From Bacillota bacterium (GTDB lineage: Bacteria; Bacillota; Sulfobacillia; DUMF01): a DNA stretch of 64,000 bases. The position numbers were made by a program, and so were the translations under genes. The stretch lies in the NCBI GenBank assembly GCA_012840015.1, contig DUMF01000017.1:16376-80375 (forward strand). Reading direction: 5' to 3'. Below are positions 4,730 to 52,424 of this stretch, piece by piece. The stretch's first letter is position 1; each line of letters starts with the position of its first letter. The notes below the pieces were generated by a model. The model was not told the origin of the DNA and made no database searches. It worked only from the letters and a program-made list of their open reading frames with translations.

Positions 4730-6382
4730 TTAGAACTCGAGCTGTAAATACTGGCTCCTGGCGAGACGACGTACTGCCGCCTGAAGGTAAGCCGATATGA
4801 CCCCGATGACTGGCAACACTGCAAGCGTGGCTACCCTCATTCCTAGCCCCATCCTGAGGAATAGCCAGAACAAGCCCGCTAGAGCAGCGACTAAAAGAGC
4901 GCCGAGCAAACCTGCGATTAGCCCGTTGTAGTTCCCCTTCATCGCTTGCTGCGGGTGAGTCCATTGTAAGCGTGGATGCAGGAGGTCTACGAGCAGCCCA
5001 ATTTGAGTCAAAGGAAGTGTTAGCGCCAAGCTTAGGGATGCGAGCCTCGCTATAGAAGCCACATCCAGGATACGGAAAAAGCACACGCTGATCAGCAGCA
5101 CCAAGAGCTGGGCAGTTCCATAGAGCATTCCGTAGAGCAGCTTTGCGTTGACCTGGATTTCAGGCGGTACCGGAATTAGCCTGGAAATCCAGAACGACTT
5201 GCCTTCCCTCGATACCGCAGTCGACGGTACCTGATTCGTCGCTACCAGCAAGCCAGAGAAACCTGTGATAGCGGGTACAAGCAAGGAGTTGCCACGTAAC
5301 TGATTGAGAAGGCCGGGCAGAGAAGCGGGCCCATGGGAGGTGGCAGCCCTGCTAACCAGCAGCAAGAGGGGTACCACCATTAGGTTCATTATGGCTGTCA
5401 TTAGGAAAGCCGGTGTACGGGTAAGATTCCAGTGTTCTCTGCGCAGCAGCGCTAGAGTAACCCCATCTGGAAGAACCTGAACGATTTGCTCGGCTCTTGC
5501 ACGCCTTCTGAGTTGGGTTTCTGCGGATAGATTGATGACGATATTACTCACGGCTGCGGCGACTACTGTAAGAAACGCCAGCGACGCTGCTAAAAAGCCC
5601 AACGAATACCATAGTGTGTAAGGACCATCGGACGAAAGTGCCCGAGCTGCCCACTGCAGTGGCGGAAATACTCTGCTCAGACGACTGGAGAACGTCTGAT
5701 ACCCATAAAGGGATGAAACGAGTCTTCCTGGATCACTCAAAGAGGTCCCGATATTCGCGTTGATCGACTGAAAGAAGACAATGGCTGCGAAGAAAATCAG
5801 GCTACTGAGTACCCGGAAGAAGTCCTTGCCCGGCAAACGTTCCGTGAGCTTCATCATTAGGGTCAAGCACAACAGAGACAACCCGAGCGGTACCAACGGA
5901 GAAAAGAGATACACCAGGACTGCGTTTAACCAGAAGATTGGGCCCATGTGAAAGGAAATGCCGGTAACCGCCGCAAAAGGCCAAAAGAATACCGCCAGGA
6001 TGAGACTAATACTGAGGTAAAGCGGTGCAAGCTCACCCATAGCTATCTGGAAGGGCGTCAAGGGCAGCACTTTTAACCTCTTTAAGTCTTTGGAGAAGTA
6101 CAATGAGGACAATACGTGGGGTATTCCGAAAAACACACAGATGATTTGGGATAGAGATACAATTAGCACTGCAGGTAGATCCCAAGCTCCTACCATCGAA
6201 GACGCTATAGTTAAGGCCCTGGCGGATACCGCTATGCTCGTAACGAAAGGTACCAGTGCAACTACGATTAGCAGAAGAAACAGGTGTTTATACTTCTGTT
6301 TTCGACCAATCCCCAGTAATTCCAACTGAGCGGCTAGATTAAACTGAGCCTTGATTAGAAACCAGATTACGCGTAGGGTCAC
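4730..6382 (-). CDS. ABC-2 type transporter permease (large polytopic membrane protein)
   Basis: 550 aa, highly hydrophobic with many predicted TM segments. Its start overlaps the stop of the upstream ABC ATPase (TGATG). Confidence 0.5.
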   Translation of the reverse strand: MTLRVIWFLIKAQFNLAAQLELLGIGRKQKYKHLFLLLIVVALVPFVTSIAVSARALTIASSMVGAWDLPAVLIVSLSQIICVFFGIPHVLSSLYFSKDLKRLKVLPLTPFQIAMGELAPLYLSISLILAVFFWPFAAVTGISFHMGPIFWLNAVLVYLFSPLVPLGLSLLCLTLMMKLTERLPGKDFFRVLSSLIFFAAIVFFQSINANIGTSLSDPGRLVSSLYGYQTFSSRLSRVFPPLQWAARALSSDGPYTLWYSLGFLAASLAFLTVVAAAVSNIVINLSAETQLRRRARAEQIVQVLPDGVTLALLRREHWNLTRTPAFLMTAIMNLMVVPLLLLVSRAATSHGPASLPGLLNQLRGNSLLVPAITGFSGLLVATNQVPSTAVSREGKSFWISRLIPVPPEIQVNAKLLYGMLYGTAQLLVLLISVCFFRILDVASIARLASLSLALTLPLTQIGLLVDLLHPRLQWTHPQQAMKGNYNGLIAGLLGALLVAALAGLFWLFLRMGLGMRVATLAVLPVIGVISAYLQAAVRRLARSQYLQLEF

Positions 6383-29205: not shown

Positions 29206-30378
29206 CTAATGTACTCGCCCCGAACCGTTTTCGTCGGGGAAGAGAATATGGTCTAGTGAGGTCGCAGCCTGCTCTTGTAGGCCCGGCAGGACATGGGAAT
29301 AAGTGTCGAGAGTTAAGTTTATCTGGGAGTGCCCGAGGCGTTCGGACACAACCTTTGGGTTTACGCCCGCCTGCAGCAGCAAGCTCGCGTGGGTATGGCG
29401 GAGGTCGTAAAAGCGGATATCCGGGAGACCTGCAGCTTTGAGCACAGCCTTGAATTTGCGGGTAAGATTCCTGGCGCTTATCGGCGTGCCATTTGCGGTG
29501 CAGAACACGAATCCATTGTCTTCCCGATAAAAGGGGCGTTCCCGGTTCTGCTGCGCCTTGTGCTTGAGCAAGACCTCGGCTATTCCCTGTGAGATTGCAA
29601 CCTGCCGGCGGCTTTTCGATGTCTTCGTACCCTGTACCAGCAGTTGGCCTTTCCGCTTCTGTAAAGTTTGACGCACCGATATGGTTAAGTTGTCGAAATT
29701 GACATCCTCCCACCTTAATCCCAACAATTCGGACTGCCTCATACCGGTGGCGAGAGCCAAGAGGAAGAGCGCATATAGCCTATCTCCTTCCAGGGCACGC
29801 AAGAGCAGCACTGCTTGTTCGGAAGTCAAGCTTCTCATTTCTTTCTGCTCCATACTTGGAGGATCGGCAGCTTCGGCCGCGTTGTACGGGACTATCCTCC
29901 ACTTGACGGCCGTCCTGAGGGCCTTATGCAGAATGCGATGGTGGTACAGTACCGATCTCGCGGAAAGCCCTCCCGGCTTGCCGTCCTTTCTCCCGGACTG
30001 AAGGGCCCGGAGGTAATACTCTTGGAGGTGGGTCGGGGAGAGCCTGGCTATTGGGATTCTCCCCAAGGCAGGGATAAGATGTTGTTCGATGATTTGCGTG
30101 TAACTCTCCAGAGTCCGAGGGCCCACCTTGGGCTTAGCGTACTTTTCCAGCCATATTCTCAGATACTCTGCCATGGTAAGCTTGCCGGGGTCGGCCGGCA
30201 GCCCAGCTTCAAGCTCCGTGATCTTCTTGGCCAGGAATCGTTCAGCCTCGCGCTTGTTACCGTGGACGGTATACCATTTATACTTCTGCTTCCCCGTCAA
30301 CTCATCGCGGCCGAGGTAGATCACGACGGAATATGACTTTTCGCTACGTTTACGGATGTGGCCTTTCAACGGTGTCAC
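29206..30378 (-). CDS. int: Tyrosine-type site-specific integrase (phage integrase family)
   Basis: An N-terminal SAM-like/arm-binding region and a C-terminal catalytic domain with conserved R…HxxR…Y residues (…LRHTHASLLLQAGVNPKVVSERLGHSQINLTLDTYSHV…). Confidence 0.85.
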   Translation of the reverse strand: MTPLKGHIRKRSEKSYSVVIYLGRDELTGKQKYKWYTVHGNKREAERFLAKKITELEAGLPADPGKLTMAEYLRIWLEKYAKPKVGPRTLESYTQIIEQHLIPALGRIPIARLSPTHLQEYYLRALQSGRKDGKPGGLSARSVLYHHRILHKALRTAVKWRIVPYNAAEAADPPSMEQKEMRSLTSEQAVLLLRALEGDRLYALFLLALATGMRQSELLGLRWEDVNFDNLTISVRQTLQKRKGQLLVQGTKTSKSRRQVAISQGIAEVLLKHKAQQNRERPFYREDNGFVFCTANGTPISARNLTRKFKAVLKAAGLPDIRFYDLRHTHASLLLQAGVNPKVVSERLGHSQINLTLDTYSHVLPGLQEQAATSLDHILFPDENGSGRVH

Positions 30379-32197: not shown

Positions 32198-32636
32198 TCA
32201 TTTCTCGTCGGGCTGGTATGAGCCTTCTTCTTCCTCGATTGCCTTGATAACGCGGATGACTTTCCTGAGAGAAACAGGGTCCAGGTCCTTGATCGTGCGG
32301 AAAGCTAACCTCAACTCACGCTTTGATAAGAAAGCCTCCCAGAACTCCTTGAGCTCGGGATCGCCTTCGACGGCATCTTCGATTTGCTTGCGCAATGGCC
32401 GCGGGTCATCGGTGCGGCCGAGGAGGTAATCCACCGAGACGTCGAAGAAATCAGCAATTTTGGTTGCAATCTCGAAATCCGGCTCGCGCTGCCCCAGCTC
32501 GTACATAGCTAGAGTGCTGGGGGCTATTACAAGTAGTTTCGCGAGTTCCCTTTGGCTGAATCCCTTTGCTTCACGTAATTCTTTTAACCGGCTCGCAAAT
32601 TTCACGAAGCTCACCCGCTCCGATCGCTCTTTCATA
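32198..32636 (-). CDS. XRE-family HTH repressor (cI-like)
   Basis: HTH_XRE motif SQRELAKLLVIAPSTLAMYELGQREPD. The likely start is the internal ATG (MKERSERV…) near 32636. It is divergent from the cro-like gene. Confidence 0.7.
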
Positions 32637-32770
32637 GTATCACCAATTGTGAGCACAGCGACCCATGCACACAAAAAGTGAAAATATCTCGTTTCGTATG
32701 TTGACATTGCTCGCACATCGTGAGTATAATCTGAAGCGAAAGGATGCTCACAGATTGCGAGTGACCACAG
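32637..32770. promoter_or_regulatory. Divergent promoter/operator region of the lysogeny switch
   Basis: TTGACA-18 nt-TATAAT oriented toward cro. Inverted half-sites TGTGAGCA (about 32647) and TGCTCACA (about 32744) lie on either side of the promoter. Confidence 0.4.
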
Positions 32771-34827: not shown

Positions 34828-35034
34828 ATGACGGAAAAAGAAAAACTGCTCGGGGCAGAGCAGTCAAGCGAGTCAACCACTGGTAATAGTCTAGCAGATC
34901 GGCGGCCGACTGGCAAGTGCATCAGGTGCGGGCGAAGGCTGACAAGGCCTTCATCAGTGGACAGGCGCATGGGGCCTGTATGTGCCGCTAAGGCGATGGC
35001 CGAACTGGCGGAGTGCGGAGCCAATGCAAGTTGA
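34828..35034 (+). CDS. Hypothetical small protein with Cys4 motif
   Basis: CIRCG…GPVC motif. Length 68 aa. Confidence 0.25.
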   Translation: MTEKEKLLGAEQSSESTTGNSLADRRPTGKCIRCGRRLTRPSSVDRRMGPVCAAKAMAELAECGANAS

Positions 35035-35050: not shown

Positions 35051-35401
35051 ATGACAAGCACGATCTATCTATCAGACACAGAGGTAGACAAGATCATCGC
35101 CGATCTGGACCATTTCAACAGGCTATGTGCCAATGGTAGCAACAGCAACGCTGCCGACATTGCAAAGACTCAGGCAATCGCGGACAACTTGGCAATTTCG
35201 GGAGAACTTACAGGGTTCGAGCTTAAGGTTTACAGGGCTGCCGAGGAAATGAAAGCCCATACTGGCTACGCCTCACCCGGCGCAGTCGCCGAGATGATCG
35301 GTGCTACGTTTGAAGCCTGTCGAGACGCCATGATCAGCATAGCGACCAAGGTCACGGAGGTACAGCGTTTGCTGGAGAGGAGGGCTGCACATGCCAATTA
35401 A
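35051..35401 (+). CDS. Hypothetical phage protein
   Basis: ORF with an RBS-like GAAGGAGAGTG upstream. No family recognised. Confidence 0.3.
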   Translation: MTSTIYLSDTEVDKIIADLDHFNRLCANGSNSNAADIAKTQAIADNLAISGELTGFELKVYRAAEEMKAHTGYASPGAVAEMIGATFEACRDAMISIATKVTEVQRLLERRAAHAN

Positions 35402-36431
35402 GGGACTCTCCGAAATCCGCCGGTTGCCCCGGCTGGGCAAGATTCACTTGGGCGTGAAGGTGAGCACCTCGAAAGGGACCACATATCCCAAAGCAGTTGA
35501 TTACTTCGTGATACCCGACGAGCTTAAGCCGATTTACGGGGAACAACCGCGGGATCTGGAAATTGTCTTTCCTGTTCCGGACCGAGAGCTCATATTCCCA
35601 CAATATCTCAAAGCCTACGGTGTCAGCGGGCTACTTTGCAAAGGTGATGGCGAGGTGGCATACCGGGTGAATCGCGACACCGGGGAAATAGACGAGATTG
35701 CATGTTGCCCCGATGAGTGCGAGTTATATAACGCCAAGAAGTGCCGGAAGGTTGCCCATCTGCAGTTCATGCTCCCGGACGCGCCTGGGCTTGGGGTATA
35801 TCAGATAGACACGAGCAGTTATCACAGCATTGTGAACCTCAACTCGTGCCTCGACATGATCGAGTCAGCCGTCGGGCGTGTTCACATGATCCCACTGCAA
35901 CTAAGCCTGAGGGAAAAGCAAGTCCAACCTGACGGGATCAAAAAGACAGTCTGGGTTATGCACCTGACTGCTAAGGTGAGTCTGAGACAGTTGCTAAAGG
36001 CTGTTATGCCCAAGCCTACTCCTTTCGCACTAGATAAGCCTGACGACAGCGAAGCACCGTGGGATTTGTTCGCCATCGAAGAATCACACGATAATCCAGA
36101 GCTAGCCGATGCCAACGGGGCTGCGCAGACAAATCAAACAGAGAGAGAGCCTGCTGAAGTTCTGCCCGAAGTAGACACCCCACAGAACCAGCCAGAGCCC
36201 GTCCCGGAAGAACCAGCCACGAAGCCATCAGCCCGCGAGATGGGTAATCTCAAGAGCTTTTGGCAAAGCGCAGTCAATCTTGGCTTCACCCAAGAGCAAG
36301 TCTACAGCGTGGCCGGCACCGATAATCTGGCCGGCTGGACAAAACAGCAGCTAAATGCGCTGCTGACGCGCTTAGCTGAAATAAAGAGGACCAACTCCAA
36401 CCAGAGTAGCCAAGGCAACCTTTTATCTTGA
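35391..36431 (+). CDS. Phage protein with Cys cluster and disordered acidic C-terminus (candidate recombination/ssDNA-annealing protein by position)
   Basis: 346 aa with a CKGDG…ACCPDECELYNAKKC cluster. It sits in the early-operon position usually taken by Erf/RecT/Sak-type proteins. No confident assignment. Confidence 0.35.
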   Translation: MPIKGLSEIRRLPRLGKIHLGVKVSTSKGTTYPKAVDYFVIPDELKPIYGEQPRDLEIVFPVPDRELIFPQYLKAYGVSGLLCKGDGEVAYRVNRDTGEIDEIACCPDECELYNAKKCRKVAHLQFMLPDAPGLGVYQIDTSSYHSIVNLNSCLDMIESAVGRVHMIPLQLSLREKQVQPDGIKKTVWVMHLTAKVSLRQLLKAVMPKPTPFALDKPDDSEAPWDLFAIEESHDNPELADANGAAQTNQTEREPAEVLPEVDTPQNQPEPVPEEPATKPSAREMGNLKSFWQSAVNLGFTQEQVYSVAGTDNLAGWTKQQLNALLTRLAEIKRTNSNQSSQGNLLS

Positions 36432-37043: not shown

Positions 37044-38090
37044 GTGAGACTACACAACCGCCAGATAAAAGCTGCGTTCTGGACAGATCCAGATCTCTTG
37101 CAGTGGCCTAGGGAAAAAAGATGGTTCTACATTGGCTTAGTACAATTGGCCGATGATTCGGGCTGTCTAGAGGATTCCCCATTCGCGTTTAAGATTCATT
37201 TGTTTCCTTCACCTTTAGATGCGGACATTACTATAGAAACCATTACCGCTTGGCGGGATGAACTTATTGCGGAAGGGAAGCTTATCCCTTACGAGGTCGA
37301 AGGCAAGAGGTATCTTTTCATAGCTAATTTCCACAAGCACCAAACGCCCGATTATCCTACGCCACCCTCCAGGGCCAGTATACCTTTGCCGCCCTGGGTG
37401 CAGTGGGTGGAAGAAGGAGAAAAGAAGAGGAAAGGACGCTATGTAGTCAGTGACATTCCCCGGGGTTTCCCGGGGAATTCCCAGGGGAACCCCGGGGAAA
37501 CCCCGCCTATAAATATAACCGGAACCGTAACCGGAACCGGAAATATAACCGGAACCGTAACCGGAACCGAAACTATAACTAAAACCGGAAAGGGGTCTGG
37601 GGAAGACCCGCGCGATCCAGTGGATCGCGCTACAGAAGCAGATCCCCCACCAGCGGTTGATACACCCAACTCACAGCAAGAGGGCCAGAACCAACCAGAG
37701 CACGCTGCGCAGGCATCAAATGAAGCACAGGGGACACCAGAGAGGCGAAAGCGCGCATCTGTGGAGTACCCACCCGACTTTGAGGAGTTCTGGAGGGTAT
37801 ACCCGCGTCATGTGGCCAAACTGGCCGCTCTGGAGAAGTGGCGGGCGCGTGTGAGGGAAGGGGTACCTCCTGACAAGCTAATCCAGGCGGCAAAGAACTA
37901 CGCGCTCTATTGCCAGCAGATGGACAAAGACGATGAGTTCATCATGCACGCGGCGACGTTCCTCGGACCCAAGCGCAGGTATGAAGATTTCCTGAACGGC
38001 GTGCCAGGCAAGGCAAAACTGCTGCACATCAGCGCCAACACTCGGCGGGCTCTGAACCTTGTGGCTAAGTACGAGCAGGGAGGTGGCTAG
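37044..38090 (+). CDS. Phage replisome organizer / replication initiator-like protein
   Basis: The N-terminal region resembles phage replisome-organizer N-domains. A Gly/Thr-rich repeat linker is encoded by DNA direct repeats. The C-terminus is a helical domain. Confidence 0.5.
   Translation: MRLHNRQIKAAFWTDPDLLQWPREKRWFYIGLVQLADDSGCLEDSPFAFKIHLFPSPLDADITIETITAWRDELIAEGKLIPYEVEGKRYLFIANFHKHQTPDYPTPPSRASIPLPPWVQWVEEGEKKRKGRYVVSDIPRGFPGNSQGNPGETPPINITGTVTGTGNITGTVTGTETITKTGKGSGEDPRDPVDRATEADPPPAVDTPNSQQEGQNQPEHAAQASNEAQGTPERRKRASVEYPPDFEEFWRVYPRHVAKLAALEKWRARVREGVPPDKLIQAAKNYALYCQQMDKDDEFIMHAATFLGPKRRYEDFLNGVPGKAKLLHISANTRRALNLVAKYEQGGG
37460..37590 (+). repeat. Phased GGGGWWWCCC repeats (x4, ~10-11-bp period) followed by two ~30-bp direct repeats inside the replication gene (candidate iterons/ori)
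   Basis: Read directly: ccccggggtttcccggggaattcccaggggaaccccggggaaacccc, then (aatataaccggaaccgtaaccggaaccg) x2. Confidence 0.6.
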
Positions 38091-38092
38091 CG

Positions 38093-38638
38093 TTGACCAA
38101 AGCTGAGACTGCGCGCTTGCTGGCAATTATGACCGCCGCATGGCCGAGGTTCGAGGTGGACGATGTGAAAGTGCAGATCTGGCACGACATGTTGACGGAC
38201 GTGCCATACGAGATTGCGGTTATGGCGTTAAAGAAGCTGATCGCGGAGAATATACACCCGCCGTCGATCGCTGAGATGCGCAGGGCTGTGTTCGAGGTGA
38301 CCACTCCGCCGCAGGAACGGCTGGATGCAGCGAGCGCGTGGGGAGAGGTGGTGCGAGCTGTGGAGTTGTATGGGTGGCCTCAGCCACAGGCAGCGCTGGC
38401 GAGCCTCTCGCCTCGCACACGACGAGTTGCAGAAATGATCGGCTGGCAGGAGATCTGCTCCGGAAACCCGGACGTGGTTCGAGCGCAGTTCATGCGTATG
38501 TATGAGACTGTGCAGCAGAGGGAAATGCATGACTTGCTACTGCCACAGCCGTTGAGACAGCAGCTTGATGCCGTCTGGCGGAAGGCATTGCGTGCGAAGG
38601 ATGGAGGGGACGAGCTGTGCCAGGCGCAAGCCCAGTGA
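38093..38638 (+). CDS. Hypothetical phage replication-module protein
   Basis: 181 aa, directly downstream of the replisome organizer. No ATPase motifs seen. Confidence 0.35.
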   Translation: MTKAETARLLAIMTAAWPRFEVDDVKVQIWHDMLTDVPYEIAVMALKKLIAENIHPPSIAEMRRAVFEVTTPPQERLDAASAWGEVVRAVELYGWPQPQAALASLSPRTRRVAEMIGWQEICSGNPDVVRAQFMRMYETVQQREMHDLLLPQPLRQQLDAVWRKALRAKDGGDELCQAQAQ

Positions 38639-40240: not shown

Positions 40241-41224
40241 ATGGAAGGTGCTCCCGGGAGGTACCGTTTGGTGGACAGGGACAGGTTGTTTCAACGTGCC
40301 TGCAATTACTTCGCTTTGTGGGAATTGACTGGGCGCCGCCCACAGGTAACGGCGAACCTTTGGAGTCGGATTACCTCAATCACAGATGTCAACGAGCCGT
40401 TGCCATTAGAGTTGGGTACTATGATAGACATCCCTGATTGGACTCCTGCTCGTATCCGCAACGTTCAAAAGCAAGTTGAACGTGCAATGAAAGAAGTTCT
40501 ACGGCGCGGTAGTGACCATATTCTGGAGAAAGGTACTCCTCAGTATCCCAGGTTGTTGGGGCAGATAGATGGTGCTCCTGAGTTTCTCTTTGCTCGTGGT
40601 AACCTAGAGTTACTTGATAGACCTGCTCTCGCTGTTGTTGGCACTAGGAATGCAAGCGAAGAGGGATTGCGACGTGCGAGTAAGCTAGCGTGTTTGCTTG
40701 TGAATCATGGGATTGTGGTAGTGTCAGGTTTGGCGCGAGGAATAGATACAGCCGCTCACCGTGGAGCACTGAGCGTAGGCACAGAGACTATCGCTGTAAT
40801 CGGTACCCCACTCGGTATTACTTACCCTCCTGAAAACGCTGACTTGCAAAAGCAGATTGAGAAAGTAGGGCTAGTTGTAACGCAGTTCTATCCCGGGGCG
40901 GGAATCCGTCGACACTATTTCCCTATGCGAAACGCGGTCATGAGCGGCCTTTGCCTTGGAACCGTAATAGTCGAAGCATCGGAGCATAGCGGGGCTTTGA
41001 TACAAGCGCGCCAGTGTCTTAAACAGGGTCGCAAGTTGTTTATTCCCAAGAGTGCGGTCGAGAATCCGGGGTTAAGGTGGCCTAAAGAGTATTTGAAAAA
41101 GGGAGCTTGTGAATTTAGCACTATTGAGGAGCTTATGGGGATATTGAGAAATGAGCATTTGCTTCCGCCCGAAAACAAGCCGGTCTGTGCAGAATCCCTA
41201 AGACGAATCAAGATGGTTTTATAG
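40241..41224 (+). CDS. dprA: DprA/Smf-family DNA-processing protein (phage-encoded)
   Basis: Rossmann-like DprA core …YPRLLGQIDGAPEFLFARGNLELLDRPALAVVGTRNASEEG… and GLARGIDTAAHRGAL. Length 327 aa. Confidence 0.75.
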   Translation: MEGAPGRYRLVDRDRLFQRACNYFALWELTGRRPQVTANLWSRITSITDVNEPLPLELGTMIDIPDWTPARIRNVQKQVERAMKEVLRRGSDHILEKGTPQYPRLLGQIDGAPEFLFARGNLELLDRPALAVVGTRNASEEGLRRASKLACLLVNHGIVVVSGLARGIDTAAHRGALSVGTETIAVIGTPLGITYPPENADLQKQIEKVGLVVTQFYPGAGIRRHYFPMRNAVMSGLCLGTVIVEASEHSGALIQARQCLKQGRKLFIPKSAVENPGLRWPKEYLKKGACEFSTIEELMGILRNEHLLPPENKPVCAESLRRIKMVL

Positions 41225-41228
41225 CCGC

Positions 41229-42485
41229 GTGTTTACAGAAGTCAACGAAATTAAGTGTGTGATAATAAGGCCACCTAACCCTCCTGGGGTAATGACCAGG
41301 GACGAAGGATGGCACAGGCTTGCCCAGCTGTTTGACTGCATTTTCCTAGTTGACCCTGGTGAAGTTGATTTGTGGAGGAAGTACGGACGTTGTGCAATAC
41401 GACAGCATGTAATCCCGTATGTTCAAGGCAACCTCAAATCTATACTATCCTCTGAGGGCTTGCTTCCGTGCGAAACGGTGTATGTGACCTGGGACCCGAG
41501 TGAACTAAACGATGCAGTAAATGCGCGCGTAGGGACTGTGCTGGTCGGAGATGACTCGCTGGTTTGGGACGGGACTCGGCCGAGAGCATGGCCTGATCTG
41601 CTCGTGAGCGAGTTAGACGGTGTTATTAAGTGCTTAGATCTAGTGCGCCAAGGACGCTTGACAGGGTATGCAGGGGAAGTAGGCGGGACTACATGGAAGC
41701 GGTTCAAACGGGGAAGCGGATGGCTGGTAGCTGGTCCAGACTGCGGCAAGAGTTGTCAGATGCAGATACTCGCTTTGGGTCGGTATTTCCCAACGGGTGA
41801 TGCAAGAGCAGCAAAACACCAATATACCCAAAGATTACTGGAAATGAAGAACGGGTGCGAACGGGTTCTAGCTGAAGTTTTGGGTCGCGTACTTGAGAAA
41901 ATAAAAGAGAACATGCCGTTTCAACTTGTTACAGTAGTGCCTCCAAAGCCTAGTAAACACTACCCTTCCGGCCTTCAGGAAACGGTCGAACGAGCCTGCA
42001 ACGAAGCAGGTCTAGGGGGTCTATTCTGCGACACGGCTTTGATTTGTAAAGAAGACTATCCTTCGCAGAAATGTACATCTTGGAGTGCCCGAGAAGAAAA
42101 CGTAAAGGGCAAGTATGAAGCAAGACTTAAAGGTTCGGAGCGGCACGTAGTCGTTATCGATGACATCTATACCAGCGGGTCGACGATTCGGGAGTGCTGT
42201 AAGCAGCTTTTGCAAGCTGGTGCCGGAGAGGTAACGGGAATTGTATTTGGTGTTGACCAGTGCGTGATTAAGTCTACCGAGGAGAAAAGACTACCTTGTC
42301 GACGACCAGGTTGCAACGGAACATACAGATTCAGATGTAACAGGGCTGACCATACTGCGTTTTGGGGTTGTTCCAAATTCCAGAACGGTTGCAAGAGTAC
42401 ACTTGACTGGGAGGATGGACTGCAGGAGCTCAACAGGATGAATACTGTGCTTGGTAGTGCATACTTTGATGACATACCTTTTTGA
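41229..42485 (+). CDS. ComF-like phosphoribosyltransferase-domain protein with C-terminal topoisomerase-type zinc ribbon
   Basis: PRTase PRPP-loop HVVVIDDIYTSGSTIRE preceded by a ComF-like segment. The C-terminal CRRPGCNGT…CN…GCSKFQNGCKST is a zf-C4_Topoisom-like ribbon. It starts 5 nt after the dprA stop. Confidence 0.55.
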   Translation: MFTEVNEIKCVIIRPPNPPGVMTRDEGWHRLAQLFDCIFLVDPGEVDLWRKYGRCAIRQHVIPYVQGNLKSILSSEGLLPCETVYVTWDPSELNDAVNARVGTVLVGDDSLVWDGTRPRAWPDLLVSELDGVIKCLDLVRQGRLTGYAGEVGGTTWKRFKRGSGWLVAGPDCGKSCQMQILALGRYFPTGDARAAKHQYTQRLLEMKNGCERVLAEVLGRVLEKIKENMPFQLVTVVPPKPSKHYPSGLQETVERACNEAGLGGLFCDTALICKEDYPSQKCTSWSAREENVKGKYEARLKGSERHVVVIDDIYTSGSTIRECCKQLLQAGAGEVTGIVFGVDQCVIKSTEEKRLPCRRPGCNGTYRFRCNRADHTAFWGCSKFQNGCKSTLDWEDGLQELNRMNTVLGSAYFDDIPF

Positions 42486-44268: not shown

Positions 44269-45547
44269 CCCCTTTAAGTGCCTTCCTGGCCAGCGGCGGT
44301 TCATGGAGTCCACAGCTCCGGAGCTTCTGTATTCAGGGGCATGGGGTGCTGGCAAAAGCCGGGTGCTGTGCGAAAAGGCGCTGTACCTTGCCCTGAAGTA
44401 CCCGGGCAACTTCGTCGGCATCTGCCGGAAGACGTTCAACGCGCTAAAGCAGACTACAATGCGGACGTTTTTCCGGGAAGCGTGCCCACCAGACCATATC
44501 AAGTCGTGGAACAAGACTGACCATCTCCTCACGCTTAAGAACGGCTCACAGGTGTACTTTTTTGGTCTCGATGACCCGCTGAAGATACAGTCGTTGAACC
44601 TGGGTGCGTGTGGGGTCGACGAGGTCGTGGAGCTAACCGAAGAGGACTGGACTGTGCTCGGAGGCAGGATACGTTTGTCGTCGGTTCCGTTCAGGCAGCT
44701 GTTCGCGGCGACCAACCCGGCGAGTCCAAGCCACTGGCTTTATAAGAGGTTCTACATTGACCGCTCCACGCTTCCGGACGGTCGGCCACTGACCGAAGTG
44801 GTTGAGAGCAACTCGTTGGAGAACCCATACCTGCCACCAGACTATGTCGCAAGGATTCAGACGCTGACTGGGCGATACAGGGAACGGTTTGTCCTGGGGC
44901 GGTGGGTTGGCTTCGAGGGGCTGGTATACGACTGCTTTGATCCCCTGATCCACGTTGTCGATAAGATGCCCGAAGGATGGCAGAAGTGGCCTAAAGTGAG
45001 GAGCATCGATTTCGGGTATGCGAACCCGTTCGTGTGCCAGTGGTGGGCGATCTCACCGGACGACGAGTGGTATCTTTATCGCGAGATCTATTTCTGTCGA
45101 AGACTCGTGTCCGAACATGCAGCTCAAATCAAGGCGTTAAGTGCTGGCGAGACGTATCTGGCAACCTACGCGGACCACGATGCCGAAGACAGGGCCACGC
45201 TTGAAGCGTGCGGCATTCCTACGGTTCCGGCTGTGAAGGACGTTTCGCCTGGTATCCAGGAGGTGTACAGCCGGTTGCAGCCGGATGAAAGGGGCAAACC
45301 GAGGCTGTACTTCTTGAGGGGTGCGCTGGTGGAGCGCGATCCGGCTCTCGTTGAGGCCAAGAAGCCGACCTGCACCATCGATGAGATACAAGGCTATCAG
45401 TACCCGAAGCCGAGGGGCGAACGGAACCCCCAGGAAGAGCCGATCAAACTGAACGACCACGGGATGGACGCAATGCGCTACGCGATTTACTCGTTTGCGA
45501 GTTCGCGAAGAGCCAAAAGGACCCTCGACAAGGTGGTAGTCGTATGA
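44234..45547 (+). CDS. terL: Terminase large subunit (PBSX/terminase_6-like)
   Basis: Walker A SGAWGAGKS and a nuclease-domain acidic residue pattern. Length 437 aa. Confidence 0.85.
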   Translation: MTSTTAPIRKTSPFKCLPGQRRFMESTAPELLYSGAWGAGKSRVLCEKALYLALKYPGNFVGICRKTFNALKQTTMRTFFREACPPDHIKSWNKTDHLLTLKNGSQVYFFGLDDPLKIQSLNLGACGVDEVVELTEEDWTVLGGRIRLSSVPFRQLFAATNPASPSHWLYKRFYIDRSTLPDGRPLTEVVESNSLENPYLPPDYVARIQTLTGRYRERFVLGRWVGFEGLVYDCFDPLIHVVDKMPEGWQKWPKVRSIDFGYANPFVCQWWAISPDDEWYLYREIYFCRRLVSEHAAQIKALSAGETYLATYADHDAEDRATLEACGIPTVPAVKDVSPGIQEVYSRLQPDERGKPRLYFLRGALVERDPALVEAKKPTCTIDEIQGYQYPKPRGERNPQEEPIKLNDHGMDAMRYAIYSFASSRRAKRTLDKVVVV

Positions 45548-47001
45548 CCGACCAGAAACGAGTGTTGACCAAAGCGATAACGATACAGGCAGACCAGCGG
45601 ACATCGGCCGGGGGGTCAAAGCAACTCCCGGCGGATCCGTTTTCGAGGCTTTATTCGGAGTACGGTCTGGTGAGGCCTCCGTATCGCCTCGAGCAGTTGC
45701 TCGAACTCAAGGAGTCGAACCCGATCCACTGTGCCTGCATAGAGCAGAAGAGTTCGGATATTGCTGGCCTGGGTTGGCACTGGGTGCCGAGACAGGGTAT
45801 CGATAAGCCCAACGAAAAGCAGCGCGACGCTCTCGAGGAGTTCCTGGCTGGCTGCAACCCCGAGATGACGTTCCGGGAGATTTTGCAAGCAGTCTGGGAC
45901 GATGTAGAAACGCTCGGGTGGGGCATTGTCGAAGTGGTCCGCAATGCTAAAGGCCTGCCGGCTGAACTGTACCACGTGCCGGGCCACACGGTCCGGGCCC
46001 ACCGTGACGGCGTCCGGCTCTGCCAGATACGGGAGAACAAGATGCGGTGGTTCAAGCGCTTCGGTGCGGAGGGTGAGTACGATCTTGAAACCGGTGAACC
46101 GAGAAACGGGCTGCCCGAGGAAAGGCAGGCCGGCGAGCTCATAGTCATCCGCAAGCCCGGTTCCCGGTCCAGCTACTACGGGATACCGACGTACATCAGT
46201 GCGCTGGGCGCCATCGTGGGCAGCCTGGCAGCCAGGGATTTCAACATTACCTGGTTCCGCGAGAAGACGGTCCCGGATATGGCGCTGATTATCGAAGGGG
46301 CCGATGTATCCGAGAAACTGGCGAACGAGCTCCGGACCTTTTTCAACATTGAGGCACGAGGGCAGCATCATAAACTGCTAATTTTGCCCATCCCTTCGGA
46401 TGCCGGTGCAGAAGTCAGAGCCAGGTTTGAGAAGCTGACTTCCGAGCTCAAAGATGCTTCGTTCCGGCTCTACCGGCACGACAACGCGGTTGAGATCCTG
46501 GTGGCTCACCGCGTTCCGCCTTACAGAATCGGTTGGGCAATCGTCGGTTCGCTGGGCGGTTCTACGGCGAAAGAGATGACTGAGATCTACAAGCGCTCAG
46601 TCATCCAGCCTGGTCAGGAGATTCTCGAGCACAGGCTTAACAATCAACTATTCAAGGCCTTCGAGCCCGGCCTTGGTGAGCTGCAGTGGCGCTGGAAGCT
46701 GGACGAGATAGACCTCTCCGACCAGATGCAGGACCTCGAGTACTCCATCAAGGGCGTGCAGTACGGCATATTTACGCCCAACGAGGCGCGTCAGCATCTA
46801 GGCAAGCAGCCTTATCCGGGCGGAGATGTGTACTACATGCCGCAAGCGCTAATACCGGCCGGCCAGGCTGAAGTGTCCAAGGCCGACGAAGATCCGCGGG
46901 ATAAAGAGTGGGACGACTGGGTTCGGGTACATCATCGCTATGAAAAAGACCTGCGCGACAAGGTGGTCGATTTTTTCGCTCCCAGGCGGAGCGCGTGCTG
47001 A
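45544..47001 (+). CDS. Portal protein
   Basis: 485 aa in the position after terL. Typical portal length with ATGA-type coupling. Confidence 0.75.
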   Translation: MTDQKRVLTKAITIQADQRTSAGGSKQLPADPFSRLYSEYGLVRPPYRLEQLLELKESNPIHCACIEQKSSDIAGLGWHWVPRQGIDKPNEKQRDALEEFLAGCNPEMTFREILQAVWDDVETLGWGIVEVVRNAKGLPAELYHVPGHTVRAHRDGVRLCQIRENKMRWFKRFGAEGEYDLETGEPRNGLPEERQAGELIVIRKPGSRSSYYGIPTYISALGAIVGSLAARDFNITWFREKTVPDMALIIEGADVSEKLANELRTFFNIEARGQHHKLLILPIPSDAGAEVRARFEKLTSELKDASFRLYRHDNAVEILVAHRVPPYRIGWAIVGSLGGSTAKEMTEIYKRSVIQPGQEILEHRLNNQLFKAFEPGLGELQWRWKLDEIDLSDQMQDLEYSIKGVQYGIFTPNEARQHLGKQPYPGGDVYYMPQALIPAGQAEVSKADEDPRDKEWDDWVRVHHRYEKDLRDKVVDFFAPRRSAC

Positions 47002-48017
47002 GAGCGCTTCCGCCGGCAGAGAAGATAGAAAAGGCCTGGTTCGACGGGCTGATTGACCCCGTCGAGGAGCAGAAGAAATTCCTCGAAGCCATACTGCCGG
47101 AACTGCAGAAGATCTTTGCCAAGTTCGCCGAAAAGGCCGCGAAGCAGCATCGAGTCAGTTTCGATCCGTCGGAACCCGCGGCTCTGGAGTGGATCAACGA
47201 GCATGCTTTCGAATTAGTCGAACAAGTCACGGACACCACGGTGGAGCAGCTTCGTGCGACGCTGGAGGAAGGATGGAAGGCGGGTGAGGGCGTAGAGGGC
47301 CTGGCAGAGAGAATCAGGCAGGTCTTCGACCAGGCTACGCGTTACAGGTCCTTTGTGATAGCCCGGACCGAGACTACCGCAGCTGCCAACATGGCACAGA
47401 TAGCCGTGATGGAGCGGGCAGGGGTGCAGTACAAGCAGTGGCTTACGGGCAGGGACGAACGCGTTTGTCCTCTCTGCGGTAGCCTGGACGGCAAAGTAGT
47501 GCGGATAGACGAGGAGTTTGCCCCGGGGATATTCAGCCCACCGGCACATCCGAACTGCAGGTGCACGGTTCTGAGTGCGAGCACAGTTCATAAGCACTTG
47601 CCAGGTCGACATGACCAAAAAAGCCACGGTAGACGAGGTCACGGGCGGCCCACAGTGATTGCGTCTATCGAAAGCGGGGATCTGCGACAGCTTGGATTGT
47701 CTGCAACAAGCACTAAAGTAGTTTTGCGCTCACAAATAAGAGCAAAGATTCTAAGAGATCACCCAGATGATGCTGGATACTTGGATAGAATCAGCGAGGT
47801 TATCGAGGCTTGGGAATATCAAGGGAAGTCTCCAAAACATCCAAGGAGACTCGAGCGATACAAGCAGTTAGACGGTATCTGGTTTACGGCAGTGGTCCAA
47901 TTAGCCGGAGAAACATCTGATTACGTTGACAACTTCGTAGTGACATTCCACAGGCTCGACGAACGAAAGGTACGTAGCCGATACAACAAAGGGAGGATAG
48001 TACCAAGAAGCCATTGA
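46995..48017 (+). CDS. Minor head protein (MuF / SPP1 gp7-like) with ~140-aa C-terminal extension
   Basis: MuF-like core ending …CPLCGSLDGKVV…HPNCRCTV, then an additional basic C-terminal region. Confidence 0.65.
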   Translation: MLRALPPAEKIEKAWFDGLIDPVEEQKKFLEAILPELQKIFAKFAEKAAKQHRVSFDPSEPAALEWINEHAFELVEQVTDTTVEQLRATLEEGWKAGEGVEGLAERIRQVFDQATRYRSFVIARTETTAAANMAQIAVMERAGVQYKQWLTGRDERVCPLCGSLDGKVVRIDEEFAPGIFSPPAHPNCRCTVLSASTVHKHLPGRHDQKSHGRRGHGRPTVIASIESGDLRQLGLSATSTKVVLRSQIRAKILRDHPDDAGYLDRISEVIEAWEYQGKSPKHPRRLERYKQLDGIWFTAVVQLAGETSDYVDNFVVTFHRLDERKVRSRYNKGRIVPRSH

Positions 48018-48339
48018 AGTGATCATGTCGACGTGGTACGATTAAATTGCCCTTGAGGTAGGTAAATGGGGACCTACGCCCTCGCGGAGATGCCGGTCTT
48101 TCCCGTCCGGCCAAGGGTGTTTTTTGTTGCTGTTCGCGAGTACAATAATCTTAGTCGCCAGAGGTGGAAAATCTCCAGCCATACCCCTGATTCACATCAG
48201 GGCAAAAGAGATGCCGGGACGGGAGGTCCGGCCTGGCGACAGCAAGCACCTTGAGGTGGACAACGGCTTCCACACGCCCTCTGGGCCAAAAGGGATGCGG
48301 GACACGCCGGACCCGCCAAGGTGTAGCCTAATATAGACG

Positions 48340-48372
48340 CATAAGGAGCCTTCCTGCAGGGCTCCTTTTCAT
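48340..48372 (+). terminator. Intrinsic terminator inside the morphogenesis module
   Basis: GGAGCCttcctgcaGGGCTCC stem-loop followed by TTTTC. Confidence 0.5.
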
Positions 48373-48396
48373 TTGCCCCGAAAGCGTGGTGATAGC

Positions 48397-49011
48397 ATGC
48401 CCAGAGGCGGAGGCTGGGACGAGACTTCTACGAGCTACAGGTATCGGGTTCGTGACCCCTATGAGTTCCAAGAAGGGAGCTTCAGGATCATATCCTTGGG
48501 CGACAGCGGTGTCAAGGCCGTGGTTGGAAAGCTCAAGGGAGAGGACTCAATGACCATCCAGTCGCTCATCTTCCCGAAGGACAAGTTTACTGAAGAAGAG
48601 GCTCGCCAGTGGTTGAAGGATCGCCCCGACACCGTAGGAAAGTTTTGCAAAGCGATCAGCTTCCTCAAAACGGATGAAGAAAAGCGCTACACCCTCGGGA
48701 TCGTCTACGAACCTGACACGGTGGATTCCCAGGGCGACTACGCGAGGGCCGAAGACATTGAGAAAGCTGCTTGGGATTTCATGAGGAAAACCCTGCGGCT
48801 CGGGTACATGCACAAGGAATGGAGCGATGACATCGGCGACATTGTAGAGTCCTATATCGCCCCAGTTGATATGAGAATCGGGGACGACATTATCAAGAAG
48901 GGCACCTGGCTTATCGGCGTGGTGTGGAGCCCGGAGTACTGGGAGAAAGTGAAGAAAGGCGAGATAACGGGGTTCTCGATGGGAGGGAAGGCGAGAAGAA
49001 TACCTGAGTAG
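48397..49011 (+). CDS. Phage protein in XkdF-like position (putative prohead-associated protein/protease)
   Basis: About 204 aa between the minor head protein and the scaffold. Family call is by position only. Confidence 0.35.
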   Translation: MPRGGGWDETSTSYRYRVRDPYEFQEGSFRIISLGDSGVKAVVGKLKGEDSMTIQSLIFPKDKFTEEEARQWLKDRPDTVGKFCKAISFLKTDEEKRYTLGIVYEPDTVDSQGDYARAEDIEKAAWDFMRKTLRLGYMHKEWSDDIGDIVESYIAPVDMRIGDDIIKKGTWLIGVVWSPEYWEKVKKGEITGFSMGGKARRIPE

Positions 49012-49085
49012 GCAGACAGCAGTGCAGAGAATGCGGCAGCCAGGCAAATTGCCCGGCTGCTTTTGTTTTGGGCGGAGGTGGTGAC

Positions 49086-50186
49086 ATGCCGAACAGGCTA
49101 ACGGATATCCAAGTCGAGGAGATAAGCGGGGTAGACAAGGCAGCAAATAGGAGACGGTTCTTGCTCATGAAGCGCGAAGGAGGTGGCGAGGGCGCTATGG
49201 ATAAGGCCGACAAGCCGATGAAGACGGAGGACGGGAAGCAGTATCCCGCAGAGGCCTATCTTTATGTGCCCGATCCAGAAAAACCAAGCACGTGGAAGCT
49301 CCGCATCTGGGAGGATCCGGAGAAAAAGGTAACCGCGGCTCAGGTAGGCAGGGCCATAGCAGCGCTAAGTCCGGGTGGGTTCCGAGGTAACCAGGTGGAT
49401 ATCCCCGAGGATGAGATTCCGAAGATCAAGGCCAAGCTCCGCAGGCTCTGGCGGGAGGTGAATCCGGACAAGGATCCGGACGAGATGCCGGAGACCATTA
49501 AGAAGCAAGGGTTCATCGCTAAGATTGCAGAGACCCTCAAGAAGGCCATCTACGGTAAGGATTTCGAGGCCAACCTAATCCAGTCAAAGATAGACGAGCA
49601 GTGGTGGAGGGCGAATGAAGCCCTGAGAACCGCAATTTCGGAGATTATCCAAGATGAGGGAATGACGCCGCAGGAGAAGATCAGTCAAATAGCCGTGACC
49701 TTGGGGCAGTTTCAGGAGTACATTCTAGGTTTGGCACAGGCACAGTTAAACGTGACCGATCAAGAGACCCAAAGGAGCGATATCCAGAAGATCGGGGCCA
49801 AGATAGCCCGATCACGGCTGGAAAAGATCAAGGCAGCGTACGCGGTGCTGGCCGAGATTTTGGCCGAAGTTGAAGGAGATGAGGAGGGCGATGAAATGAC
49901 CAAGGAAGAGATCACAAGGATGGTGGAAGACGCTTTGAAACCTGTGGTTGAGAGGTTAGAGAAACTCGAGAAGCCGGAGGACGGCGACAAAAATGATCCT
50001 GCGGCCGAGCAGGTCAAGAAGGAAGATGTGCAGGCAATGGTGACCGAGGCGGTCAACAAGGCTCTGGAGCCCGTCCTGCAACGGCTCGAGGTCGTCGAGA
50101 AGGCCAAAGGTATAAAGAAGTCGGTCGACGGCCAGGACGACCCCGACAAGGACGTCAAAAAGAGCATTTGGGCAGGTATTCTGTGA
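49086..50186 (+). CDS. Scaffolding protein
   Basis: Highly charged, helical, coiled-coil-rich protein directly upstream of the capsid gene. A GGAGGTGGTGAC RBS precedes ATG 49086. Confidence 0.55.
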   Translation: MPNRLTDIQVEEISGVDKAANRRRFLLMKREGGGEGAMDKADKPMKTEDGKQYPAEAYLYVPDPEKPSTWKLRIWEDPEKKVTAAQVGRAIAALSPGGFRGNQVDIPEDEIPKIKAKLRRLWREVNPDKDPDEMPETIKKQGFIAKIAETLKKAIYGKDFEANLIQSKIDEQWWRANEALRTAISEIIQDEGMTPQEKISQIAVTLGQFQEYILGLAQAQLNVTDQETQRSDIQKIGAKIARSRLEKIKAAYAVLAEILAEVEGDEEGDEMTKEEITRMVEDALKPVVERLEKLEKPEDGDKNDPAAEQVKKEDVQAMVTEAVNKALEPVLQRLEVVEKAKGIKKSVDGQDDPDKDVKKSIWAGIL

Positions 50187-50211
50187 TCTCGAGTGAGGAG
50201 GAATGACGCAA

Positions 50212-51150
50212 ATGCCAATGAGCAACAAGGAATTGCTGGAGAAAATAGACACCGGATCTCTGGCCGGGGGTGGACTGCTCAACCCTGAGCAGGCCAAGGA
50301 GTTCTTTGAGATGACGTTTGAGGCGACGGAGTTCTCAAAACTTCATCGCAAGGAGCAGAAAACTGCCACCACCGGCGAGCTTGACAAGATCGCGATCGGC
50401 GGCAGGTTGCTGAGGAAGAAGACCGAGGGCGTCGACGACAATTATAGGGCAGGCATCAGCACGTCAAAGATTGAATACTCGACCGTACCCGTGCGTTTGC
50501 CCTGGGACATTTCCGAGGATACGCTGCGGAAGAATATCGAGAGAGAGGCTTTTGAGGACCGCGTCATCAGGATGATGACCACCCAGACCGGTATCGACGC
50601 TGAGGACTTGCACTTTAACGGAGATACCTCCAGCAGCGACCCATTCCTGAGCATCAACGACGGCTGGATCAAGCAGATCAAGACCGGCACAGGTTCACAT
50701 GTGGTAGACTGTTCCGGCGACTCTGCCTTCGGCAAGGCTACACTGTTCAAGATCTCCCGGAACATGCCCAACAAGTACAAAAGCTCAAAGCTCAAGTGGA
50801 TCATGAGCCCGACTAGGCGTGAACTCTGGATCGAGTATCTCACCAGCCGACCCACCGCCGCGGGGGATGCGGCACTGCTCGGGGCCGGGGATCAGGTGAA
50901 CCAGCCTTTGGGATACGGGATCGTGACTGTTCCCTCGCTTCCGGACGACATCATAATCCTTACCAACCCGGAAAACTTTATCGTCGTCTGGACGTACGAC
51001 ATCCGTATACGCAAAACCACCGAGGGCCGTGAGGCCATCATGCAGGATAAGCGTTTCTACGTCATACACTTCGACGACGACCCGGTGATACAGGAACTCG
51101 ACGCGGTGGTGCTGGCGTACGGTATTCCCGAGACCCTGGCTACCTCGTAA
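50212..51150 (+). CDS. Major capsid protein
   Basis: About 312 aa following the scaffold. GAGGAGGA RBS. Confidence 0.65.
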   Translation: MPMSNKELLEKIDTGSLAGGGLLNPEQAKEFFEMTFEATEFSKLHRKEQKTATTGELDKIAIGGRLLRKKTEGVDDNYRAGISTSKIEYSTVPVRLPWDISEDTLRKNIEREAFEDRVIRMMTTQTGIDAEDLHFNGDTSSSDPFLSINDGWIKQIKTGTGSHVVDCSGDSAFGKATLFKISRNMPNKYKSSKLKWIMSPTRRELWIEYLTSRPTAAGDAALLGAGDQVNQPLGYGIVTVPSLPDDIIILTNPENFIVVWTYDIRIRKTTEGREAIMQDKRFYVIHFDDDPVIQELDAVVLAYGIPETLATS

Positions 51151-51163
51151 AGGGTGAGACTCA

Positions 51164-51472
51164 GTGAAGAGACTTAGACTTCTAAGATTGGCCTCGTTCA
51201 GCGGCTACGGAATAGACGTGACGCAGAACGAGCCTGTGATCGAAGTGGAAGACGATTTAGCGGAGAGGCTTTTGGCGACGGGGTACTTTGAAGATCTGAC
51301 CCCAAAGGGCACTACGAAAGTGCCTGCACCAGAGCCCCAGAGTGAGAATGAAAAAGTTCCAGAAGCACCACAGGGCGAAGAAGTGCAGGCAACGGATGAG
51401 ATTGAAAGCGTGGCGGAGCCTTCTGAGGATATGCAGGAGGCTCCTAAGTCTAAAGGGGGTAGGAAGAAATGA
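51164..51472 (+). CDS. Hypothetical acidic phage head-module protein
   Basis: ORF-track entry only. Low-complexity acidic C-terminus. Confidence 0.3.
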   Translation: MKRLRLLRLASFSGYGIDVTQNEPVIEVEDDLAERLLATGYFEDLTPKGTTKVPAPEPQSENEKVPEAPQGEEVQATDEIESVAEPSEDMQEAPKSKGGRKK

Positions 51473-51849
51473 TCACGGTACCATATGATCTGGGCGCTGT
51501 GGGCGTAGAGCAGGTAGCCAGCGCCGACATAACCAAGGCAGATACTACGGTTGAAATTATATCTTTGCCGGCGAACTGCCTCATAACCAGGGTAATCGCC
51601 GAGGTCACTGAGGCGTTCAATGCGGCGACTACGAACGTCCTGACTGTTGGAACGAATGTTGACGTGAATGACCTCTTGGGTGAGGGCGATGTTAACGAGA
51701 GCGCCTCCGGCTTCTACGAGTCGGCCACTGTGAAAGCTAAGAAGTTGACTGCAGCGGCTACTGTAAAAGCAAAGTACGCCTATACCGGCACGGCGCCGAC
51801 TACGGGCAAGGCGACGATATACGTGTTCTTCGTAAGACTGCAGCCGTAA
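51469..51849 (+). CDS. Hypothetical phage structural protein
   Basis: ATGA overlap with the upstream gene. Confidence 0.35.
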   Translation: MITVPYDLGAVGVEQVASADITKADTTVEIISLPANCLITRVIAEVTEAFNAATTNVLTVGTNVDVNDLLGEGDVNESASGFYESATVKAKKLTAAATVKAKYAYTGTAPTTGKATIYVFFVRLQP

Positions 51850-51866
51850 TGGAGAGTAGGTGACGG

Positions 51867-52424
51867 GTGATGGATTACATCACCGTTGCGCAGCTGCGCT
51901 CTAGGCTCAAAACTGATCTGGACGACGGGGCGCTTTCCGATATCATCGCGGAGGAGAGCGCCCTTATTACTGTCACCCTGAGCGCTGAGCCAGCCGATCC
52001 GATGGTTGAGGAATTGCCCGGCGGAGGAACCGCGATCTGGCTCACCTACCGCCCTTCGGTAGTCCAGGAGGTCCGGGACGTCGTGAGCGATACCGTGATC
52101 GACCCGGCAACGTACCTGGTGCGGGGGCGCGCTTTGGTCATGCCGCAAATGGTCATATCGGATCTGGACTTTGAAATCCGATCTGCAACGTGGCCGGAAC
52201 GGGTGAGAGTCACGTACTCCATCGCCGGGCTCGCGGATATCCTCGCCATCTTGAGAGGAGTATGCCTCGACCTGTGCAGGTTGGCGATCACCGACATGGG
52301 GGCGGAGCAGTCGGAGCGCCTCGGAGACTACCAGCACGACTCCAAGGATGTGCAGGCCGAGCGCAAGAAGGTGCTCGCCCGGCTCAACAGGATAAAGGGT
52401 CTACGGCCCGTGATGGCCGGATGA
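51867..52424 (+). CDS. Head-tail connector (gp6-like)
   Basis: The N-terminal ITVAQLRSRLKTDLDDGALSDIIAE pattern and position suggest a head-tail connector. Confidence 0.45.
   Translation: MMDYITVAQLRSRLKTDLDDGALSDIIAEESALITVTLSAEPADPMVEELPGGGTAIWLTYRPSVVQEVRDVVSDTVIDPATYLVRGRALVMPQMVISDLDFEIRSATWPERVRVTYSIAGLADILAILRGVCLDLCRLAITDMGAEQSERLGDYQHDSKDVQAERKKVLARLNRIKGLRPVMAG

Follow-up and report, generated by a model that had tools for sequence, protein, structure and literature searches.

The 64,000-nucleotide stretch of the Bacillota contig DUMF01000017.1 analysed here (the window) carries, from about 29.2 kb onwards, a prophage whose early rightward operon includes a gene for a replication initiator, or replisome organiser, of 348 amino acids (aa) at 37044-38090 on the forward strand. 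Based on our analysis we propose that positions 37455-37630, inside the linker-coding part of this gene, are very probably the theta-type replication origin of a temperate Bacillota phage, present here as a prophage. We favour this reading because homologous genes keep a two-part layout of DNA repeats at the same spot, whatever peptide results from it. An origin within the initiator gene is a known, textbook arrangement (lambda, SPP1), met here in a large protein family for which Pfam has no model.

The first part of the layout is an iteron array at 37455-37505 (ATTCCCCGGGGTTTCCCGGGGAATTCCCAGGGGAACCCCGGGGAAACCCCG), characterised by Tandem Repeats Finder (TRF), inverted-repeat and Markov analysis. 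It has four palindromic CCC(N)GGGG cores at 37458-37465, 37469-37475, 37480-37487 and 37490-37497, about 10.7 bp apart (10.5, 11.5 and 10 bp from centre to centre), and a partial fifth core, CCCCG, at 37501-37505; TRF describes it as a period of 11 repeated 4.1 times (37455-37499). The sequence-only reading from which this work started had seen here four GGGG(A/T)3CCC units at a spacing of one helical turn. Four phased units are indeed present, 10-11.5 bp apart, but the formula is exact in two of them only, the forward-strand GGGGWWWCCC sites at 37462 and 37494. Written in that register the array comprises GGGGTTTCCC (37462), GGGGAATTCCC (37472), GGGGAACCCC (37484) and GGGGAAACCCC (37494), with starts 10, 12 and 10 bp apart and spacers of 3, 4, 2 and 3 bases. 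As a whole it forms an inverted repeat of 22+22 nt that is 91% complementary and centred on GAATTC at 37477/37478, and the fold of this dyad as single-stranded DNA is computed at -21.8 kcal/mol (z = -4.1). The pattern CCC[N]GGGG has six overlapping matches in 50 bp, compared with a maximum of three in 300 first-order Markov simulations of the window. A lone CCCGGGGAA at 33686 is within chance expectation, and there is no second, oriR-like copy of the iterons or of the tract that follows them elsewhere in the window, a finding that is neutral for the case.

The second part, at 37511-37587 on the forward strand, is a candidate unwinding or loading region detected by TRF, a tract of period 6 and 30 (AAATATAACCGGAACCGTAACCGGAACCGG, repeated 2.3-2.6 times) that is built of AACCGG/AACCGT hexamers. 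Its first two copies, at 37511-37540 and 37541-37570, agree at 29 of 30 positions, and behind them a degenerate third copy reaches about 37587-37600. No other repeat in the window scores as high in TRF (124). With up to one mismatch, AACCGGAACCG occurs six times in the tract and twice elsewhere, where 1.07 occurrences would be expected, and none of 100 shuffles reaches eight. The tract translates as ...PPINITGTVTGTGNITGTVTGTETITKTGKG... and encodes NITGTVTGTG-NITGTVTGTE-TITKTG, and the identity of the copies together with this translation bears out the earlier description of tandem 30-bp copies coding for a Gly/Thr linker (NITGTVTGTG). Its coding strand is rich in A (0.44) and poor in T (0.12), with an AT content of 0.56 compared with 0.46 for the gene. 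The TATAACCGGAAC of the tract is also found in two of the homologous loci described below (L010 and L074).

The gene that contains both arrays starts with GTG, has AGGAGG 7 nt upstream and shares its N-terminus, MRLHNRQIKA, with its homologues. It was recognised from the list of open reading frames (ORFs) and from matches to the PHROG families 270 (E = 3.6e-27, aa 24-311) and 16167 (E = 1.8e-26, aa 6-318), with further matches to 1408 and 2149. All four families are annotated as 'replication initiation protein', an annotation based on homology, not experiment, and the families matched by the N-terminal part (aa 6-130) differ from those matched by the C-terminal part (aa ~200-320). By these homologies the product of 37044-38090 is a phage replication initiator. 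Since no Pfam or NCBIfam model matches it (whole protein at Pfam E <= 0.01, each domain alone at E <= 10), the initiator is assigned to no Pfam family, that of lambda O included; the model for the N-terminal part of lambda O gives no match, and membership of its family was rejected.

An AlphaFold model built from 99 homologues has a confident N-domain (aa 1-135, encoded by 37044-37448 on the forward strand) and a helical C-domain (aa ~240-345, encoded by 37731-38087 on the forward strand), separated by a linker whose predicted local distance difference test (pLDDT) values are mostly below 50. The N-domain is predicted to be a winged helix, with ORC2, the N-terminal domain (NTD) of DnaD and Cdc6 as its nearest folds, and is presumed to bind the origin. 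The C-domain, with a mean pLDDT in 10-residue blocks of 88-98 over aa 241-320 and of 63-66 in the last helix, matches PHROG 26426, 9327 and 1701 (replication, primosomal and DnaD-like loader) and is presumed to interact with a partner or loader. Searches of the PDB by sequence, with the family profile and with the C-domain, returned nothing useful: the matches to eL39 were rejected as chance, and the one to DnaD as due to members of the alignment that carry a DnaD domain. The arrays at 37455-37587 correspond to aa 138-182, within the linker between the two folded domains. Directly 3' of the initiator gene lies a gene for a G39P-like helicase loader (38093-38638, forward strand; PF11417 Inhibitor_G39P, E = 4.1e-13, 50 bits with a cut-off of 22), the product of which is 26% identical to SPP1 G39P (BLASTP, E = 5e-7). 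That the repeats sit in a replisome-organiser gene, as the sequence-only reading had it, thus agrees with PHROG 270 and 16167, the winged-helix N-domain and the loader gene next door.

Homologues of the initiator were gathered from protein databases and from genome, metagenome and viral contigs, giving 105 loci, and quantification was done on 68 non-redundant complete genes. The 180 nt that follow the N-domain were scored for arrays of period 10-12 (score >= 10), with N-coding and C-coding segments of equal length as controls. Such an array is present in 49 of the 68 linker stretches, compared with one N-coding and no C-coding segment. The mean repeat score is 11.5 at period 11, 10.3 at period 6 and 10.6 at period 12, and about 3.5-4 in the controls. 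In nearly all the loci read, the G(K/R)Y(I/V)V motif, which is conserved, is directly followed by the two-part layout. Its first part consists of 3-6 repeats with a period of ~11 bp, lineage-specific in sequence and often palindromic; the types met across lineages are GTCCGGGAC, CGTACGGTGAC, GTTCTTACA, GGACATGTCC, GTTGTACAAC, GTGACAGCGCAG and CTCACATACTA. The second part is a period-6 tract of GAACCA, GAACTA, AACCGG, AACCTA, GAAATA or GAATAG, the place of which is taken in proteobacterial members, such as Pseudomonas phage vB_Pae_U8, by CCTGATT/CCTGAAT. Of 32 loci, 28 have the iterons ahead of the tract. In 44 of 46 loci the coding strand of the tract shows an excess of A (0.51 compared with 0.31) and a shortage of T (0.10 compared with 0.22), and its AT content lies above that of its own gene in 35 of the 46, with family means of 0.61 and 0.53.

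Three features of this comparison together indicate that selection has acted on the DNA and not on the linker peptide. An 11-bp period is out of frame, which excludes selection for a repeated peptide as its cause. In 20 of the 68 homologues the tract position is occupied by three or more NAACYN hexamers in succession, and the tract is read there in frames 0, 1 and 2 in nine, five and six loci, giving peptides of the kind EPEPEP/ELEL, TGTITGT (the case of the window) or NQNLNQ. In the class with GGTNACC iterons, the DNA of the iteron block is more conserved between diverged genes (mean identity 0.78) than the adjacent DNA coding for the conserved domain (0.66, and 0.41 at its third codon positions). 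The earlier claim that the repeats are the replication origin thereby gains support, as the layout recurs across homologues with differing iterons, out-of-frame period and hexamers in all frames.

The nearest relative, a prophage of Desulfofundulus salinus with 83% identity in the N-domain, shows TGTCCGGGAC five times at intervals of 11 bp and then GAACTG/GAACCG hexamers, and in it a DnaB helicase gene replaces the G39P-like gene. At least three CSGGGA/CCGGAC sites, which resemble those of the window, are found in three of the six closest N-domain relatives and in 2 of 61 others (Fisher p = 0.004, a value that ignores kinship). The array is linked to the initiator gene in many genomic contexts, with a G39P-like loader or DnaB helicase gene as its neighbour, and of the 22 homologous loci with a G39P-like match, 21 have it right after the initiator gene and the remaining one about 230 nt downstream. 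The N-domain family itself is large: in a library clustered at 50% identity it has 10,293 representatives within E <= 1e-3, of which 188 are within E <= 1e-30. Three or more types of C-domain are found joined to it, namely that of the window, DnaD PF07261 and G38P-type PF09524. A search for small plasmids on which this initiator is the only Rep returned just 12 records, seven of plasmid size (40-70 kb) and five of 0.45-4.1 Mb, and was uninformative.

Several observations made along the way concern the arrays of individual loci. Two iteron arrays, at about 540-1000 of L013 and about 1880-2000 of L030, are built by 33-bp duplications (3 x 11 bp); as 33 bp is the smallest multiple of 11 that keeps the frame, this suggests that arrays inside a gene can grow only by iteron triplets. 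The cultured phage vB_Pae_U8 (PP003920.1), whose initiator is 29% identical over 90% of the query and whose primase/helicase gene adjoins, carries AACAGT(G)TTTTAACAGTTAAAAC and then CCTGATT/CCTGAAT repeats at the equivalent mid-gene place (2900-3025 of locus L108). At 4760-4870 on the forward strand of locus L111, ~11-bp repeats of the GTCCCCGGGG type precede a period-6 tract that is rich in pyrimidines, here too in mid-gene. As BLASTP shows no similarity of this 290-aa ORF to the window protein, and no Pfam model matches it, the layout may also occur in another initiator family. Other viral contigs with CCCGGGG arrays were discarded, being mostly GC-rich, low-complexity DNA unrelated to initiators. 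Finally, a 94.8-kb metagenome contig, UOOE01000078, holds two initiator copies about 35 kb apart (45131-51958 and 80296-87123; L011 and L012) with identical match statistics, which may reflect either related prophages in tandem or a repeat in the assembly.

We propose that the four CCC(N)GGGG iterons are the binding sites of the winged-helix N-domain, probably in dimeric form, and that a bent nucleoprotein complex would result, the iterons all lying on one face of the helix since their spacing is one helical turn. In line with the sequence-only reading, we infer that these iterons would be bound by the product of the very gene in which they lie. The A-rich, T-poor period-6 tract at 37511-37587 would then be the site of duplex opening or of single-strand capture, and the C-domain and the G39P-like loader would bring in the replicative helicase. 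As no gene for a DnaB-type or G40P-type helicase was found in the replication module of the window, this helicase would probably be that of the host.

Lambda O, whose gene carries the origin iterons in its linker-coding region, had been named as the parallel. The mid-gene arrangement does hold, but the closest experimentally characterised parallel is SPP1, with G38P, oriL and G39P. SPP1 oriL is embedded in gene 38 and consists of AB boxes bound by G38P and an adjacent AT-rich DNA unwinding element (DUE), and a 356-bp oriL fragment is enough for G38P, G39P and G40P to support theta replication in vitro (PMC5737612). In the sequence of gene 38, five ~11-bp units (GAAACGACAC/GAAAAAGACAC) are followed by an A-rich, T-poor periodic AACAATGATAAC tract, and these repeats fall between the parts that code for the N- and C-domains. 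SPP1 and the window thus have in common an origin (in the window a putative one) in the middle of an initiator gene, phased ~11-bp repeats that precede an A-rich, T-poor tract, a G39P-family loader gene downstream and an initiator without an AAA+ domain; moreover, some homologues of the window protein have the G38P-type C-domain PF09524. Unlike SPP1, the C-domain of the window protein is not PF09524, its module has no recognised G40P-type helicase gene and the window has no oriR-like second site; its iterons are GC-rich palindromes and its tract falls far short of the SPP1 DUE in AT content. No homology to G38P itself, or between the N-domains, was detected: the family profile matches G38P with an hhalign probability of 1% (E = 0.057) over a short C-terminal stretch only, and PF09524 gives no match.

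Compared with lambda, the units of the window are short, ~8-11 bp long and one turn apart, whereas the lambda iterons measure ~19 bp and follow each other at about two turns; the window's loader resembles G39P and not lambda P, and the host belongs to the Bacillota (Firmicutes). The origins of lambda and of the Shiga toxin (Stx) phages lie in the middle of gene O and comprise iterons and an AT-rich tract, and in Stx phages recoding of the iterons with an unchanged O protein abolishes replication (PMC7466680). As in the window, at least four individually palindromic iterons and an AT- or A-rich tract stand mid-gene, and the peptide they encode connects an origin-binding domain at the N-terminus with a partner-binding domain at the C-terminus (PMC7466680).

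DnaD at oriC of Bacillus subtilis, with its NTD as a scaffold, provides a further comparison. Its target there is a periodic motif of single-stranded DNA (5'-TnnT-3' pairs), and this binding maps to its C-terminal tail, not to its NTD (PMC10201434). Many members of the family fuse the N-domain of the window protein to a DnaD-type C-domain (PF07261), and in both systems a short-period, strand-asymmetric motif lies beside initiator-binding sites, putative in the window, the DnaD recognition element (DRE) being opposite the DnaA-trios. DnaD, however, is an accessory factor recruited by DnaA and not a stand-alone origin binder, and no PF07261 domain can be recognised in the window protein. The view that the tract of the window is a TnnT motif like the DRE was discarded, as its AACCGG hexamers do not fit.

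Several findings weigh against the proposed origin. At the threshold chosen, 19 of the 68 homologues have no clear array of period 10-12. The number of hexamers differs between the close relatives L039, L040 and L083, as is expected of slippage-prone DNA. The N-domain is 50-83% conserved and yet the iterons change by lineage, and the residues that confer specificity are not obvious; a mutual-information scan (18 sequences in three iteron classes, confounded by phylogeny) ranked aa 103-106 and 126-127 at the top, which are not in the predicted recognition helix. The tract is only mildly AT-rich (56%), and AT content peaks elsewhere in the module, where the 40-mers richest in AT (67.5%) are at 37180-37240 in the region coding for the N-domain. 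The AT-rich unwinding element that had been anticipated downstream did not materialise, GC being 0.57-0.63 from 37550 onwards, and the 30-bp/hexamer tract is the sole candidate for an unwinding region at the site. The GC skew does not switch at the array site.

The high conservation of the N-domain alongside variable iterons allows the roles to be reversed within an origin, although we consider such an origin unlikely. The period-6 NAACYN tract would then be the specific recognition element of the initiator, either as duplex or, like the DnaA-trios or the DRE, as a single strand after unwinding, and the 11-bp arrays would be auxiliary, serving in bending, as a cruciform, as host-factor sites or in lineage specificity or incompatibility. 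Lineages with unrelated iterons have N-domains 50-83% identical and hexamers of the NAACYN/GAA type in common, and the tract of the window keeps the motif though it is not very AT-rich, which would be needless in a generic unwinding element. DnaD sets a precedent with its periodic single-strand motif at oriC (PMC10201434), and the bottom strand of (GAACCA)n, TGGTTC, has a T at every third base. In the window, however, (AACCGG/AACCGT)n has, as judged by eye, no TnnT on either strand outside AAATATAA islands; DnaD binds the single strand through its C-terminal tail, whereas the window protein lacks a recognisable DnaD C-domain; the initiators of SPP1 and lambda bind the phased iterons; and the copy number of the hexamers varies among close relatives. 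A kindred proposal, that the period-6 tract is a strand-specific recognition element of the conserved N-domain while the iterons set lineage specificity and the linker peptide is a by-product, is doubtful.

That the arrays are instead protein sites for something other than replication, be it an operator through which the early operon is autoregulated, a partition site akin to a centromere or a site of packaging or recombination, is very improbable. Plasmid centromeres and operators are also typically phased at 10-11 bp, and Foldseek matches the winged-helix centromere binders AspA and TubR weakly (E = 0.4-0.7). Yet the genes adjoining the initiator are replication and recombination genes, with no partition ATPase or terminase-small gene beside it, the array accompanies the initiator gene in many genomic contexts with a G39P-like loader or DnaB adjacent, and the layout of iterons followed by an A-rich tract is that of proven origins; autoregulation through binding at the origin would supplement its function, not replace it. 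The least probable explanation is that the repeats have no function as DNA and reflect neutral slippage in a disordered, low-complexity linker, with which the low pLDDT and the variable hexamer number agree, or that, as a variant, a GC-rich hairpin acts in the mRNA as a translational pause, as the 44-nt dyad would fold stably as RNA too (computed with DNA parameters), for against it speak the out-of-frame 11-bp period in linkers but in at most one control segment, the iteron identity in excess of that of domain-coding DNA and of its third positions, the reading of the hexamer in all three frames and the fixed order of the arrays, and the hairpin is not the conserved feature because many iteron types, for example GTTCTTACA, are not palindromic.

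Beyond the tract, by ~25 bp, an inverted-repeat search detected a perfect 10+10 palindrome, GCGCGATCCA-g-TGGATCGCGC, at 37610-37630. A GCGC-rich motif, for example ACGCGCGCGCGAGGAA, is present at the equivalent place in 11 of the 68 homologues, compared with 1 of 68 and 4 of 68 control segments, and it is conceivable, on this weak support, that the palindrome is a third component of the origin.

The prophage nature of the region is apparent from an integrase gene (29206-30378, reverse strand), found in a library search of the window proteins, a gene for a cI-like repressor (32198-32716, reverse strand) and genes for RusA, the large terminase and the portal protein. Upstream of the initiator gene and in the same operon are a DUF6011 gene (34828-35034) and a Gp3-like gene (35391-36431, 'recombination directionality factor-like', PF18897, E = 8e-52). 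Further along, 40241-41224 encodes a DprA-like protein (PF02481, E = 5e-62) and is followed at 41229-42485 by a gene whose 418-aa product weakly matches phosphoribosyltransferases and may be ComF-like; the two genes would represent competence-type DNA processing in a phage early region.

The layout described here is a useful predictive rule and an example of overlapping codes, not a new principle. As a rule it allows origins to be sought from sequence alone in the thousands of uncultured phages and prophages with this N-domain: after the G(K/R)Y(I/V)V motif one looks for an array with a period of ~11 bp and then for a period-6, A-rich tract, and vB_Pae_U8 offers a tractable system for the prediction. 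The codes overlap in that one DNA repeat is used in all three frames and that arrays grow by 33-bp steps that keep the frame. The many pairs of initiator and iterons constitute a data set for the evolution of specificity in winged-helix proteins, and they could aid the design of compatible phage-derived replicons for the Bacillota (Firmicutes), anaerobes included.

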